Origin: a virus
Lineage: Duplodnaviria; Heunggongvirae; Uroviricota; Caudoviricetes
Direction: 5' to 3' (one strand)
Length of the DNA: 19,618 bases
IMG/VR virus record: IMGVR_UViG_3300014691_000062
Below are positions 12,662 through 18,250 of this stretch, piece by piece (the first letter of the stretch is position 1; each line of letters begins with the position of its first letter). The notes under the pieces are model-generated. The model had not been told where the DNA came from. It saw only the letters and a program-made list of their open reading frames with translations, and made no database searches. The position numbers were made by a program, and so were the translations under genes.

Positions 12662-13266
12662 GCGTTAGTTTCTCCACAGTCACGACACGCCACGGCGCCC
12701 GGAGCTGCACACTCGCGGGCGTCATTACTTTCTGAAATGCAAAAGATTTTGTAGACCAGTGCTGCATGCTCCTGCAGCTTCGAAATTGAGAGATACAGCT
12801 CGTCGTTAATTGCTGTCTTCTCATGCGGTTCCACCACACCGTCTTCGATTGCCGAACGAATCTGTCTGGAATAACTGCCAATCTGTTCAATGACTTCCAG
12901 CAGGCGCTGGTTAATATCGGCGTTGTCCACATCCTCGACGTCAGGAAGAGACACAAAGACGCCATTTGCAGACTGCGCCACAGCGTCAGCAATGAAGTGA
13001 GTTCCACCAGCACGTTGCAAAATCATTGCCCATCCCAGCGGGAAAATCTGATCGCCATCGGCACGAAGGCGGTTAAATAATGCGTTTTCTGTTACATCCA
13101 GCCAGTCAGCTGCTTCAGCGTAACCACCCGGCAACGCTGCGATAGTTTTTCTGACAGCTTTCACGTACCACTCAGGCTGTTTTTCTACTTTCCAGTGATG
13201 CTTACCCACGGTTAGCCTCATCGTTCTGTGGTTTCTGTTAATCGATTTATCCATTAGATTTTTCAT
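12658..13266 (-). CDS. Putative CII-like / YdaT-family regulator
   Basis: Long ORF immediately downstream of a YdaS-like cro. The track start at 13323 would overlap cro by 77 nt; plausible ATGs are at 13266, 13254 and 13221. Family assignment is from position and partial recall. Confidence 0.45.
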
Positions 13267-13447
13267 AAAGCTCAGGTTTAAATGGCAACCGTCCGCAAGT
13301 TCTATATGCAGCTTCTGCTGCACGTCCTTTTGGAATTAACTGGCCCGGACGGTTTCGCCACTGATAAACGGCTTCAGTTGTTATGCCGAAAAAAGCAGCA
13401 ACTTTCTCAATACTGCCGAAGTAGCTTTCGATATCGTCAGTTGTCAT
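13247..13447 (-). CDS. cro: Cro-like repressor (YdaS-family HTH)
   Basis: 66 aa, divergent from cI across an operator region; HTH …SIEKVAAFFGITTEAVYQWRN… resembles YdaS/Cro. Confidence 0.75.
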   Translation of the reverse strand: MTTDDIESYFGSIEKVAAFFGITTEAVYQWRNRPGQLIPKGRAAEAAYRTCGRLPFKPELYEKSNG

Positions 13448-13544
13448 ACGCCCTCCAAACTAAGTTTTATTAGATGCTAATTACAAATCTATCTTTGGTC
13501 AATAAAAACTAAGATTACTTAGCAATTCAAGAAATGGTGCTCCT
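13448..13544. promoter_or_regulatory. OR-like region: divergent promoters with two operator palindromes
   Basis: CTAAGttttaTTAG at 13460..13473 and CTAAGattaCTTAG at 13509..13522 between divergent cro and cI. Confidence 0.6.
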
Positions 13545-14171
13545 ATGGAAACGGTTGGTCAGCGTATAAAAGCTCTGAGAAGAGTTACCGGAACGTCCCA
13601 GAAAGAATTGGGTAAATTTTGTGGAGTAAGCGACGTTGCTGTGGGGTACTGGGAGAAAGACATCAATACCCCTGGTGGGGAGGCACTTTCGAAATTAGCG
13701 AAGTTCTTCAATACGTCAATAGATTACATTCTTTATGGTGCTGAGTTTGAAGGCAAACTCGTCACAAACATGCGCAGAGTTCCTGTAATATCGTGGGTTC
13801 AGGCTGGGCAGTTTACTGAATGCAGGGCAGCAGAAGTGTTTAGTGAAGTGGACAAGTGGGTAGATACATCATTAAAGATTGGTGATAACTCATTTGCATT
13901 AGAGGTTAAAGGTGACTCCATGACTAACCCTAATGGCCTCCCAACAATACCAGAAGGCGCAACAGTGATTGTAGATCCAGATGCAGAACCTCGTCATGGA
14001 AAAATAGTCATCGCTCGACTTGATGGAACAAACGAAGCTACAGTAAAAAAATTAGTCATCGATGGCCCTCAAAAGTTTTTAGTGCCATTAAATCCTCGGT
14101 ATCCCAACATCCCTATCAATGGTAATTGCCTTATCATTGGTGTAGTCAAAGGAGTTCAATACGAACTCTAA
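13545..14171 (+). CDS. cI: CI-type prophage repressor (HTH plus S24 LexA-like autopeptidase domain)
   Basis: 208 aa; HTH …GTSQKELGKFCGVSDVAVGYWEKD…; S24 motifs GDSM and …ATVKKL…; overall similarity to P22 C2 / lambda CI by recall. Confidence 0.9.
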   Translation: METVGQRIKALRRVTGTSQKELGKFCGVSDVAVGYWEKDINTPGGEALSKLAKFFNTSIDYILYGAEFEGKLVTNMRRVPVISWVQAGQFTECRAAEVFSEVDKWVDTSLKIGDNSFALEVKGDSMTNPNGLPTIPEGATVIVDPDAEPRHGKIVIARLDGTNEATVKKLVIDGPQKFLVPLNPRYPNIPINGNCLIIGVVKGVQYEL

Positions 14172-14184
14172 GACCTCTCTTCTC

Positions 14185-14255
14185 TAACTAAGGCACCGAA
14201 CTAAGAAAAGTTTGGTGTTTTTTCTTGCCATAATAACTAAGTTAAGTTAGATTTT
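14185..14255 (+). promoter_or_regulatory. OL/PL-like region: operator repeats and a candidate sigma70 promoter
   Basis: CTAAG…CTAAG at 14188..14205 and CTAAGttaagTTAG at 14237..14250; TTGCCA (14225..14230), 17-nt spacer, TAGATT (14248..14253). Confidence 0.5.
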
Positions 14256-14361
14256 ATATCAAAGATAACGAACAGGCAGGACGCCCACGAAGTAGCCGCC
14301 TGGGGCATATAAAGTCTAGGGTGATTCGTTAGCAACAAAAAAGCGCCCTACAGGACGCTTA

Positions 14362-14374
14362 GCTCTTTAACAAT
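14362..14374 (+). promoter_or_regulatory. boxA-like element (rrn-type GCTCTTTAACAAT) in the early-left leader
   Basis: 13/13 identity with the E. coli rrn boxA core as I recall it; about 110 nt downstream of the putative PL and 45 nt upstream of the first early-left ORF. Confidence 0.45.
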
Positions 14375-14418
14375 CTGGTCCCCATCAACAAGTAACTGAT
14401 AACTTGAGGAGGTGTGAA

Positions 14419-14625
14419 ATGCACAAAACAGAACCCAAAATCGTCGCGCCCGGATACACAAATGAGGAAATTTACGAGTGGATGGCAAAGAAGCTGGCAG
14501 CTATAAACCAGCTTCGTGAAGTGCTGTCTTATCGACAGGAAACAATAGACTCCTTAAAAAAACTGGATCAGGAAATCACGGTTTTATCACAGGATGTTAC
14601 TTTAGATATTGTGCAGACAAATTAG
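14419..14625 (+). CDS. Small hypothetical protein in the position normally held by N
   Basis: 68 aa from the ATG at 14419 with GGAGGTG SD (track start 14404 is TTG). No arginine-rich motif, so not N-like. AT-rich. Confidence 0.5.
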   Translation: MHKTEPKIVAPGYTNEEIYEWMAKKLAAINQLREVLSYRQETIDSLKKLDQEITVLSQDVTLDIVQTN

Positions 14626-15031
14626 GATCCCATTCATTTTCGTCAAAATCATCAAAGTGATGAATTTGTGATCTCCAGTCTCGATAATCTAAAAATTTCT
14701 GGGCGGTTACGCTTATTTTATCAAGTGTGAGTTCATCCTGAATTGAAAGAAGAAGTTCATCAAATTTCATCTCATTAATCTGTTTTGGCATCCAGTGATG
14801 CTTCATCAGAATAAGGTGAACCAGAGCCTTTTTCCCATTCAACTGATTATAGGGAGTGCCGAATTTCTTCCGGTGCTCATGTAAGACAAGGTCCAGAAGA
14901 GTAAGTAATGTTGCCCTTGATTCCACTTTGCTTATTTCGACTGATGACACTACCCCACTGATTTCAATGCCCCGATACTTTCCAACATTTTCACAGTGGG
15001 ATTTGTACAGCGTGTAGATATTACCGGACAT
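14597..15031 (-). CDS. Hypothetical protein, convergent with and overlapping the preceding ORF
   Basis: 144 aa, ATG with AGGA-type SD; acidic C-terminus (…HHFDDFDENEWDPN…); AT-rich; antisense to the early-left operon. Confidence 0.55.
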   Translation of the reverse strand: MSGNIYTLYKSHCENVGKYRGIEISGVVSSVEISKVESRATLLTLLDLVLHEHRKKFGTPYNQLNGKKALVHLILMKHHWMPKQINEMKFDELLLSIQDELTLDKISVTAQKFLDYRDWRSQIHHFDDFDENEWDPNLSAQYLK

Positions 15032-15046
15032 TTCTTTTCCTTTTGC

Positions 15047-15098
15047 GTTGTTGGGGATAACCAGATTAACCGAATCCTTGTTGTTGGGGAATAACCAG
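15047..15098. repeat. Direct repeat GTTGTTGGGGATAACCAG / GTTGTTGGGGAATAACCAG upstream of the 14597..15031 gene
   Basis: Two copies (15047..15064, 15080..15098) differing by one inserted A; on the minus strand they read TTATCCCCA, one mismatch from a DnaA-box consensus. Confidence 0.5.
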
Positions 15099-15104
15099 GT
15101 CCAC

Positions 15105-15545
15105 CTCGCCTGATGTGGCTAAAAGCAGGCACATAACAGCTAAGTATTTTTAACCAGAGAGAATCCTTAGCGTTGTGGTGAATGCGGCTCAGCGCACGCG
15201 GGTTAAGGTTGAGGCTGACAGTCGACCTTCTGTGGATACCCACCCGTCTGGTGTGCAACCTTCGCCAGGCACCGGGAGGCACCCGGCACCACAACTTTAT
15301 GCTGTGTGTAGTCCTGGAGGTACCAGTTTGTACCCTTGCTTCCGGCTGGTACCGTCCTTTTTACAAAACAGAGAAGAGCATCACCGGACGACGGGCTCAT
15401 AACCCAATCCATCCGGGCGGCTGCCACCGCAGGTGTTCTTCTCTGTTTTGTGGAGAAACTAACCGCCCCTACGGGGGCATTCATGGAAATGTAATTGACT
15501 CAATAATCGCCGGACGGTGAGGGCTTCCTTTTACCCGAATTCAGC
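15105..15545. other. GC-rich, ORF-poor, self-complementary segment (candidate structured RNA or decayed remnant)
   Basis: Only short ORFs with R/P/G-rich nonsense translations in several frames; nested inverted repeats (ggtaccag…ctggtacc 15320..15353; aacagagaaga…tcttctctgtt ~15367..15446; gcccctacgggggc ~15465..15478). Confidence 0.35.
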
Positions 15546-15575
15546 GCGGTGCAGCGCATATACGTGGAGAACAAA

Positions 15576-16112
15576 ATGTCATTTATTAAAACTTTTTCCG
15601 GGAAGCATTTTTATTATGACAGGATAAATAAAGACGACATCGTTATTAACGATATCGCGGTTTCCCTTTCAAATATCTGTCGCTTTGCAGGACATCTTTC
15701 ACACTTCTACAGTGTCGCCCAACATGCGGTGCTTTGCAGCCAGCTGGTGCCGCAGGAATTTGCTTTTGAAGCTTTAATGCATGATGCAACAGAAGCATAT
15801 TGCCAGGACATCCCCGCACCACTGAAACGACTTCTTCCTGACTATAAACGTATGGAAGAAAAAATAGACGCCGTAATCCGTGAGAAATACGGGTTACCTC
15901 CTGTTATGAGCACGCCAGTGAAATATGCCGATCTCATTATGCTGGCAACCGAACGCCGCGATCTCGGGCTTGATGATGGCTCTTTCTGGCCTGTACTGGA
16001 AGGTATCACGGCAACAGAGATGTTCAAAGTGATTCCACAGGCACCGGGCCATGCCTACGGGATGTTTATGGAACGTTTTAACGAGTTATCGGAGTTACGC
16101 AAATGCGCATGA
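15576..16112 (+). CDS. HD-domain phosphohydrolase
   Basis: H…H and HD motifs (…RFAGHLSHFYSVAQHA…LMHDATEAY…); ATG at 15576 with GGAGA SD (track start 15549 is GTG). Confidence 0.75.
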   Translation: MSFIKTFSGKHFYYDRINKDDIVINDIAVSLSNICRFAGHLSHFYSVAQHAVLCSQLVPQEFAFEALMHDATEAYCQDIPAPLKRLLPDYKRMEEKIDAVIREKYGLPPVMSTPVKYADLIMLATERRDLGLDDGSFWPVLEGITATEMFKVIPQAPGHAYGMFMERFNELSELRKCA

Positions 16113-18160: not shown

Positions 18161-18250
18161 CTTATTGATTTTAATGGTGCCGATAATAGGAGTCGAACCT
18201 ACGACCTTCGCATTACGAATGCGCTGCTCTACCAACTGAGCTATATCGGC
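18161..18250. other. Putative attL (core expected to overlap the 3' part of thrW)
   Basis: Junction between the int stop and the tRNA; P22-type integrases are known to target the 3' end of thrW. Exact core boundaries cannot be set without attR or attB. Confidence 0.45.
18175..18250 (-). tRNA. thrW: tRNA-Thr (anticodon CGU)
   Basis: 76-nt minus-strand sequence GCCGATATAGCTCAGTTGGTAGAGCAGCGCATTCGTAATGCGAAGGTCGTAGGTTCGACTCCTATTATCGGCACCA: cloverleaf, CGT anticodon, encoded CCA end. Confidence 0.95.

Follow-up and report, generated by a model that had tools for sequence, protein, structure and literature searches.

What does a GC-rich segment of some 440 bp do in the early-left operon of a temperate phage if it holds no credible reading frame? 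The question is raised by positions 15105-15545 of the IMG/VR virus record IMGVR_UViG_3300014691_000062, a lambdoid prophage that was analysed over its whole stretch of 19,618 nt (from here: the window). The original prediction, made from the letters alone, pointed to several stems in this segment and considered a structured RNA, either a cis-acting antitermination element of the HK022 put type or a small regulatory RNA (sRNA), or else the decayed remnant of genes. We report that the segment is a conserved chain of non-coding RNA modules on the + strand. With a probability of roughly 0.55, it is the structured leader of the pL operon in a lambdoid prophage of the SfII/SfV/ST64B type, with an attenuator and processing mechanism. 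The locus is a real, conserved and mis-annotated RNA, in part a divergent, operon-embedded variant of a known family and in part, in the module named M3, unclassified.

The three stems are real and located within 1-2 nt of the positions claimed. The contrast in composition was also confirmed, with a GC content of 0.54-0.55 over 15100-15549 versus 0.36-0.43 in the flanking region 14500-15100. When both strands were folded, the predicted structures were more stable than those of dinucleotide shuffles, and more so on the + strand, with z = -2.56 (+) and -2.06 (-) for 15130-15365 and z = -4.75 (+; 0 of 200 shuffles as good) and -2.73 (-) for 15355-15545. Modules were defined by alignment of the window with SfIV, ST64B, 118970_sal3, phiES15, F1055 and an Stx2c phage, and about 350 further loci were added from pattern scans of viral and genome collections. 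Across these sequences, the modules follow the order M0, M1, linker, M2 and M3 and were exchanged independently between phages. The relatives have in addition M4, a small GC hairpin that closely precedes the next gene's ribosome-binding site.

Derived from 47 distinct sequences, the consensus structure of M3 has a three-way junction and is closed by a long helix. Out of 1410 pair cells, 98% are paired and 46 are compensated; five pairs show double compensatory changes (e.g. CG<->AU in 16 sequences and GC<->CG in 16), and none of 500 shuffles reached the observed score. About 15% of the pair cells are G-U, which become A-C mismatches on the opposite strand; therefore, the RNA corresponds to the + strand. 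Six variants were folded, among them a 'type 2' variant with an unrelated apex, and in each the closing helix comprises 24-26 bp, so that the predicted folds contain a near-perfect duplex exceeding the ~20 bp expected of an RNase III hairpin. Since this helix starts in the U-tract of M2, it can form only in read-through transcripts. There was no significant match for M3 in Rfam 15, nor was its core sequence found in the literature searched by sequence strings. M3 is an unclassified motif, widely conserved and missing from Rfam. In two identical loci (L435), the M3 apex is the exact reverse complement of that in locus L431 between unchanged stem arms, a DNA inversion mediated by the inverted-repeat arms.

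M1 has a relative among the known RNA families. A permissive Rfam scan (801-nt search) yielded one meaningful match, STnc100 (RF02076), which is full-length with 38.4 bits and E = 1.1e-6. This is below the gathering threshold of 47 bits, at which a scan of the whole window gave no match and at which STnc100 was likewise not called in the loci L004, L005 and L018, which have the same M1 variant as the window, here called type A (5′ GAAUGCGGCUCAGCGCACGCGG). Across relatives, M1 is a variable structured insert between the closing strands GUUGUGGUG and CACCACAAC; as in STnc100, the closing helix reads GGUG.../...CACC, and the hairpin CCGGGAGGCACCCGG abuts its 3′ strand. Comparison of five type-A subgroups revealed the helices Pa and Pb, which the minimum free energy fold misses. 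The full structure including the pseudoknot is 98% and 99% paired in two subgroup alignments, while slid controls pair to about 30-47%, and a covariation score as high was seen in 0 of 500 shuffles. Both P1 (GC<->AU, CG<->UA) and Pb (UA<->CG at two positions, UA<->GC/AU, AU<->UA) contain compensatory changes, and Pa and Pc use G-U pairs. These column-wise pair counts replaced a 'longest complementary run' statistic for the pseudoknot, which was discarded as non-discriminating (runs of 6-11 nt versus a shuffle mean of 5.6 and a 95th percentile of 8). With compensatory changes in two independent domains and G-U pairs that fit the + strand only, the proposal of a structured RNA stands.

A clear sigma-70 promoter, whose end lies about 8 nt before GGUGAAU, marks the canonical STnc100 copies, which never have a boxA; over the canonical set, this promoter is of the TTGAC-17-TAAATT type. 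The motif TANNNT occurs upstream of 67% of the canonical copies versus 11% of the type-A copies, whereas the boxA-like GCTCT[TC] is located directly 5′ of the closing helix in 59% of type-A and 0% of canonical copies. Of the features of a stand-alone STnc100 gene, the window has the terminator-type hairpin, but no sigma-70 promoter belonging to M1 was found in it. M1 can hence be assigned to the STnc100 superfamily as a pseudoknotted domain that is embedded in an operon and lacks its own promoter. The suggested sRNA therefore survives as a sub-threshold STnc100 relative followed by a terminator-type hairpin, but not as a gene with the promoter of its canonical counterparts.

Several other arrangements of this family were observed. 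In other phage contigs, many of them large, type-A M1 directly precedes protein genes without a terminator. In a 74-kb phage contig (L253 4566-4809, -), type-A M1 with an upstream boxA-like motif is located directly before a cluster of three tRNAs; the downstream sequence in a 110-kb contig (L314) is near-identical. Canonical STnc100 copies stand in tandem, 270-500 nt apart and each with its own terminator, in the viral contigs L033, L070, L087 and L031.

Between M1 and M3 lie a linker and M2 (Table 1). The linker is predicted to be single-stranded and conserved across loci with different M1 types, which makes it a candidate seed or processing region; in relatives without M1, it is directly abutted by M0. 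M2 is a GC-rich hairpin directly followed by a U-tract, and we read it as an intrinsic terminator. In ST64B and phiES15, the M2 sequence is wholly replaced, yet a hairpin followed by CUUUUU is retained. Among 92 distinct upstream flanks, a T-run directly 5′ of M3 is present in 90, and a hairpin closing within 3 nt of the T-run in 87. M0 always adjoins the start of a divergent minus-strand gene; it is possibly the promoter or regulatory region of that gene, or an RNA hairpin.

Table 1. Features of the segment and of its surroundings in the window
Feature	Position	Strand	Description
M0 conserved block	15101-15135	+	CCACCTCGCCTGATGTGGCTAAAAGCAGGCAC
M1, STnc100-like pseudoknotted domain	15172-15295	+	Rfam RF02076 and covariation
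M1 P1	15172-15180 with 15287-15295		GTTGTGGTG with CACCACAAC
M1 Pa	15198-15202 with 15243-15247		GCGGG/CCCGU
M1 Pb (pseudoknot)	15205-15211 with 15256-15262		AAGGTTG with CAACCTT, in the loop of hairpin Pc
M1 Pc	15248-15253 with 15263-15268		
M1 Pt hairpin	15272-15286		CCGGGAGGCACCCGG
Linker	15296-15316	+	TTATGCTGTGTGTAGTCCTGG, predicted single-stranded
M2 hairpin	15317-15363	+	Core GGTACCAG/CTGGTACC, then TTTTT at 15359-15363
Stem 1	15320-15327 with 15347-15354		ggtaccag/ctggtacc
M3, three-way-junction RNA	15358-15456	+	Closing helix of ~25 bp including the M2 U-tract; ends in GGAGAA
Stem 2	15368-15378 with 15438-15448		aacagagaaga/tcttctctgtt, encloses 59 nt
M3 tip	15392-15405	+	CGGGCTCATAACCC (CGGGCUCAUAACCC); three G-C pairs, 7-nt loop CUCAUAA, anticodon CAU
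Deletion junction and yfdR 5′ region	15463-15575	+	Aligns with the yfdQ-yfdR intergenic region of K-12 and SfIV
Stem 3	15466-15470 with 15475-15479		gcccc/ggggc
cro	13247-13447	-	
cI	13545-14171	+	LexA-type
Predicted pL	14225-14253	+	TTGCCA-17-TAGATT; overlaps operator-like repeats
Hairpin directly 5′ of boxA	14341-14360	-	Followed by a T-run; an intrinsic terminator if read on this strand
boxA, perfect, rrn-type	14362-14373	+	GCTCTTTAACAA; ~100 nt downstream of predicted pL
Divergent gene, ECs1072 family	14597-15031	-	Between the 73-aa reading frame and the segment
tRNA-Thr	18178-18250		Sole tRNA in the window

The modules recur 3′ of cI and 5′ of yfdR in many enterobacterial phage contigs. 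In 151 M3-bearing stretches, cI relatives are found about 1.5 kb upstream in 82 and yfdR relatives about 1.5 kb downstream in 109, each on the expected strand, and ymfL in 117. Part of the segment is matched in 3017 of 5426 complete E. coli genomes, at least 80% of it in 412, and by 65 phage records. The M3 core occurs in 23 species-level genomes, 22 of which are labelled as Enterobacterales genera. An assembly labelled Chryseobacterium sp. (L354, CACSKA010000005.1) also carries the enterobacterial M3 core and is probably a contamination or mislabelled. The CPS-53 prophage of E. coli K-12 was considered as an annotated reference, but its yfdO-yfdP spacer is without any module, so no K-12 annotation applies.

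Stem 3 has a different origin from the other two, as it equals the yfdQ-yfdR intergenic hairpin AAAUGCCCCUGCGGGGGCAUUU. In SfIV and ST64B, two genes, yfdP- and yfdQ-like, are located between M4 and this hairpin, whereas K-12 keeps yfdP and yfdQ but has none of the RNA modules. The window and SfII have lost both homologues by a clean deletion. The idea of a decayed gene remnant thus does not hold for the segment itself, which is not a gene remnant but borders a deletion at its 3′ end. The longest yfdR reading frame starts with GTG at 15549, while the NCBI Prokaryotic Genome Annotation Pipeline (PGAP) and the homologues start at the ATG at 15576, preceded by GGAGAA; the first nine codons of the long frame are probably not translated.

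The tip of M3 resembles the anticodon arm of an initiator tRNA. It matches positions 29-42 of E. coli metZ, the tRNA-fMet anticodon stem-loop, exactly over 14 nt, and forms in every predicted fold a hairpin with the three G-C pairs and the 7-nt loop of such an arm. The wider match extends over 16 of 17 nt, with a local alignment score that 0 of 2000 shuffles reach, and the chance of a 14-mer match anywhere in the window was estimated at ~0.01. It coincides with the best-conserved hairpin of M3. In the M3 alignment A2 the tip is invariant, in loci selected on this very core; as the first loci were core-selected, sampling was repeated through a neighbouring Sb37-like protein. Of 80 loci obtained in this way, 68 carry GGGCTCAT[AT]ACCC, and the remaining 12 comprise point variants, a family with GGG-AACUAA-CCC and, in L425, a truncated locus. 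No cloverleaf was recognised, as neither M1 nor M3 scores as a tRNA by ARAGORN or by Rfam (14900-15700 at E <= 10).

The M1 slot of related phages is filled by other folds, and the occupants in L199 and L193 score as tRNA with 43.9 and 29.5 bits, respectively. They show CAU-type loops (GGUUCAUAACC in L199, GGAUCAUAACC in L193), and the acceptor stem UGUGGUU/AACCACA of the L199 occupant equals the M1 closing helix. A further tRNA match, in L181 (40 bits), is located about 310 nt upstream of M3, unlike these two occupants. All three elements (L199 1077-1203, -; L193 4364-4488, -; L181 1800-1925, +) measure about 125 nt and have a large insertion where the anticodon arm should be. The Rfam tRNA model matches these three, whereas ARAGORN calls no tRNA in L199 or L193, nor in loci with T-arm-like motifs. 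A functional mimicry of the tRNA-fMet anticodon arm, by which the M3 tip as an early, abundant pL product would act as a decoy or ligand, appears doubtful to us. Candidate partners would be the 30S P site with IF3, the methionyl-tRNA synthetase MetRS, and those toxins of Shigella and Salmonella that belong to the VapC/MvpT type and cut tRNA-fMet in its anticodon stem-loop (PMC5408214). If the mimicry were true, the early-left leader would, together with the tRNA-like elements of the M1 slot, be a cassette site for tRNA-mimicking, possibly anti-defence, RNAs.

The genomic setting fits a leader. The prophage is integrated beside tRNA-Thr (18178-18250) and proA; it is identical to one in E. coli ECONIH1 and closely related to the Shigella phages SfII, SfIV and SfV. 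Because cI is encoded on the + strand and cro on the - strand, + is the 'leftward' early direction. The promoter-like site at 14225-14253 is predicted to be pL from its sequence, and the operator-like repeats AACTAAGTT of the cI-cro intergenic region (13457-13522) recur within it at 14235-14252. The boxA following it is the sole copy with 0 mismatches in the window; a boxA near pL in a phage without annotated N points to antitermination of the Nus/boxA type. No N-like gene is annotated in the prophage, and the single match of a 73-aa open reading frame (ORF) after boxA is phrog_1744, which has no assigned function. This ORF and the ECs1072-family gene were rejected as encoding partner proteins of M3, with a co-occurrence at only 17-18 of the 151 loci. 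The two form a cassette bracketed by a 20-nt inverted repeat with 75% complementarity (14372-14391 versus 15048-15067) and by the direct repeats GTTGTTGGGGA(A)TAACCAG at 15047-15057 and 15080-15090. A moron insertion may have left these repeats as scars; alternatively, they may bind proteins or form a long-range RNA stem that begins directly behind boxA. Downstream of the segment follow yfdR, yfdS, yfdT, xis and int, and then tRNA-Thr. In ST64B and related phages, the region on the pR side contains matches to isrK and C4-antisense RNA (L004 21-97, -; L130 2538-2726, -; L131 5052-5240, +), at a distance of a few kb from the leader.

Most likely, the segment serves as a leader for attenuation and processing, from which stable small RNAs would arise. 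After induction, transcripts initiated at pL (from ~14260) would fold M1, and unmodified polymerases would stop at M2. The RNA released in this way, with M1, a single-stranded linker, the terminator hairpin and a U-tail at its 3′ end, would look like an Hfq-type sRNA, and M2 would act as an attenuator keeping the downstream early-left genes (yfdR ... xis, int) silent. Polymerases carrying a boxA-nucleated Nus complex may read through M2, whereupon M3 would fold and its ~25-bp duplex could be cut by RNase III, in the way in which this enzyme cuts the hairpin of the lambda N leader and the processing stalks of rrn transcripts. Such a cleavage would separate the stable structured RNAs from the downstream mRNA and set the 5′ end of the latter.

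Several points weigh against this scenario. The 5′ and 3′ ends of the RNAs, termination at M2 and cleavage by RNase III are all ones that we infer. The loop of M2 exceeds 8 nt, and for this reason M2 was missed by a simple terminator scan. Complexes of the rrn boxA type are known mainly for suppressing Rho-dependent rather than intrinsic termination, and the exact boxA is common to just 12 of 107 related loci, so that it had to be rejected as a general feature of the relatives. Next to M1, the window has only a degenerate form of the boxA-like motif (AATCCTTAG), and the perfect boxA is about 800 nt further upstream. A mere RNase III site would not account for how strongly the sequence of the M3 apex is conserved. 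Moreover, most loci were found by exact-pattern scans, which inflates the apparent invariance of those patterns, and pairing was counted on the very sequences from which the structures were derived.

Other explanations assign a different role to the RNA or do without one. M1, alone or with boxA, could be a new cis-acting processive antiterminator, functionally like HK022 put or lambda nut, an RNA that loads onto the polymerase (by itself, with Nus factors or with a phage protein) and carries it past M2 and later terminators. The lack of an annotated N-like gene, the position of M1 upstream of a terminator in the pL operon, the GCTCT[TC] abutting its closing helix in most relatives, its complex and conserved fold and its use in other phage contigs as a terminator-less leader right before genes or tRNA clusters all speak for this possibility. 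We consider it unlikely nevertheless, since there are relatives with M2-M3 but without M1, the adjacent boxA consensus is lost in the window copy, and canonical STnc100 relatives are stand-alone genes with promoter and terminator that are expressed in lysogens (PMC5331693). Membership in the put type itself was rejected on sequence, copy number and architecture. Put elements measure ~70 nt, form two stem-loops and follow closely on the promoter of each of the two early operons (PMC9378689). Local alignments of M0-M1, M2 and M3-M4 with both strands of HK022 27.5-30.2 kb, from the immunity region that holds putL and putR, gave best scores of 15-23, at noise level. Motif and mismatch searches of the window, the pR operon included, found each module only once, leaving M1 without a pR-side partner; M3 is located downstream of a terminator, not upstream, and a perfect boxA is already present shortly after the predicted pL. 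Even less probable is an ordinary stand-alone gene for a trans-acting sRNA of the STnc100/PasD family, with M3 as an unrelated hairpin. The STnc100 model does match end to end, including the terminator; STnc100 is transcribed in lysogens of enterohaemorrhagic E. coli (EHEC), one copy having been confirmed by Northern blot (PMC5331693), and the family was recently linked to PasD and described as prophage sRNAs (bioRxiv 10.64898/2026.05.13.724894). This reading loses weight because no upstream sigma-70 promoter was found, unlike in canonical copies. In addition, the score stays below the gathering threshold here and in other type-A loci, the context is an early-left leader and not the late region near Q, stx and lysis genes where STnc100 usually resides, and M3, which has covariation of its own, is coupled to M2 in 87 of the 92 flanks. 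The supplements of the EHEC RNA-seq/Ribo-seq paper contained no M3, and STnc100 there was represented by canonical copies only. An identity with PasB was rejected, as PasB is located within a structural-gene operon.

Readings without a functional RNA fare worse. Inverted repeats can act in DNA as recombination, cruciform or replication signals, and the deletion of yfdP-yfdQ ending at hairpins, the inverted M3 apex in L435 and the shuffling of modules between phages would agree with this. Yet the G-U pairs in M3 and in Pa and Pc of M1 are strand-specific and meaningless for duplex DNA, the U-tract after M2 is present on one strand only, and the M1 pseudoknot has no rationale in DNA, so that we judge a DNA-level element very improbable. 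The least credible explanation is a protein-coding gene or pseudogene, although annotation favours it. PGAP places a 'frameshifted hypothetical protein' (pseudogene) on the + strand, the SfII and SfIV records annotate ORFs in the segment, and the minus-strand ORF 15203-15484 matches phrog_3651 at 1e-56, belongs to a 270-member cluster of 'hypothetical proteins' and is by chance uninterrupted in both E. coli and ST64B despite a net indel of 21 nt. ORFs of 52-114 aa do cross the segment on both strands, and in that respect the claim that it has no credible reading frame is to be qualified; the segment shows no coding signature. None of these ORFs matched Pfam or NCBIfam, and the members of the minus-strand cluster range from 64 to 93 aa with inconsistent starts. 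The open + frame running into the downstream gene corresponds to different frames of the aligned DNA in SfIV and ST64B. Counted against ST64B, the window has 56 substitutions, spread 17/22/17 over codon positions 1/2/3 in whichever frame; the indels measure 1, 1 and 20 nt. The length differences within M3, which spans 104 to 131 nt, are likewise no multiples of three. One relative has the M3 apex inverted, and nucleotide-level invariance falls on paired RNA positions. A coding function is therefore largely refuted.

Reading the segment as RNA has consequences beyond this prophage. Over half of the complete E. coli genomes examined carry part of it, labelled by pipelines as hypothetical ORFs or as a pseudogene, and spurious proteins such as phrog_3651 and the PGAP pseudogene would be removed. 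The abundant STnc100 family splits into stand-alone, promoter-bearing genes and a promoter-less, boxA-coupled, pseudoknotted leader form, which gives a handle on what the fold does. M3 is a new, widely conserved motif and raises a testable link between early transcription of temperate phages and initiator-tRNA mimicry. The leader also shows where to look for how phages without an annotated N pass the terminators of their early operons.

Compared with known systems, the segment is, like HK022 put, a structured RNA that a lambdoid phage with no annotated N carries in its early-left transcript, and the cI of ST64B is annotated as HK022-cI-like; it differs in its sequence, its single copy and its architecture. 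With STnc100/PasD, M1 has in common the closing helix formed by the 5′ GUGGUGAAU and 3′ CACCGGGAGGCACCCGGCACCA(C) motifs, internal hairpins, the downstream terminator hairpin and residence in lambdoid prophages. It departs from STnc100 in its sub-threshold score, in the first hairpin, which reads GCGGCUCAGCGC where STnc100 has CCCCCUGUGCGGAGGGG, in the missing promoter together with the upstream boxA-like motif of its relatives, and in its location in the pL leader instead of downstream of Q, stx or the lysis region. Mimicry of a tRNA anticodon arm in an mRNA leader is known from the thrS operator of E. coli. The 14-nt identity of the M3 tip with the tRNA-fMet anticodon stem-loop and the M1-slot elements of related phages that score as tRNA (29.5-43.9 bits) recall this operator and phage tRNA-like elements, whereas M1 and M3 of the window do not score as tRNA and some M3 variants carry other loops. 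The lambda pL leader contains nutL with boxA and boxB, an RNase III hairpin before N and the terminator tL1, and rrn leaders combine boxA with a processing stalk. The segment differs from these in the order of its elements, in the lack of sequence similarity and, apparently, in that neither a boxB nor an annotated N gene is present. What it has in common with them is a position immediately downstream of the predicted pL, a boxA, a putative terminator that would gate the downstream early genes, a long predicted duplex preceding the first ORF and a structured RNA enclosed by a helix next to boxA.

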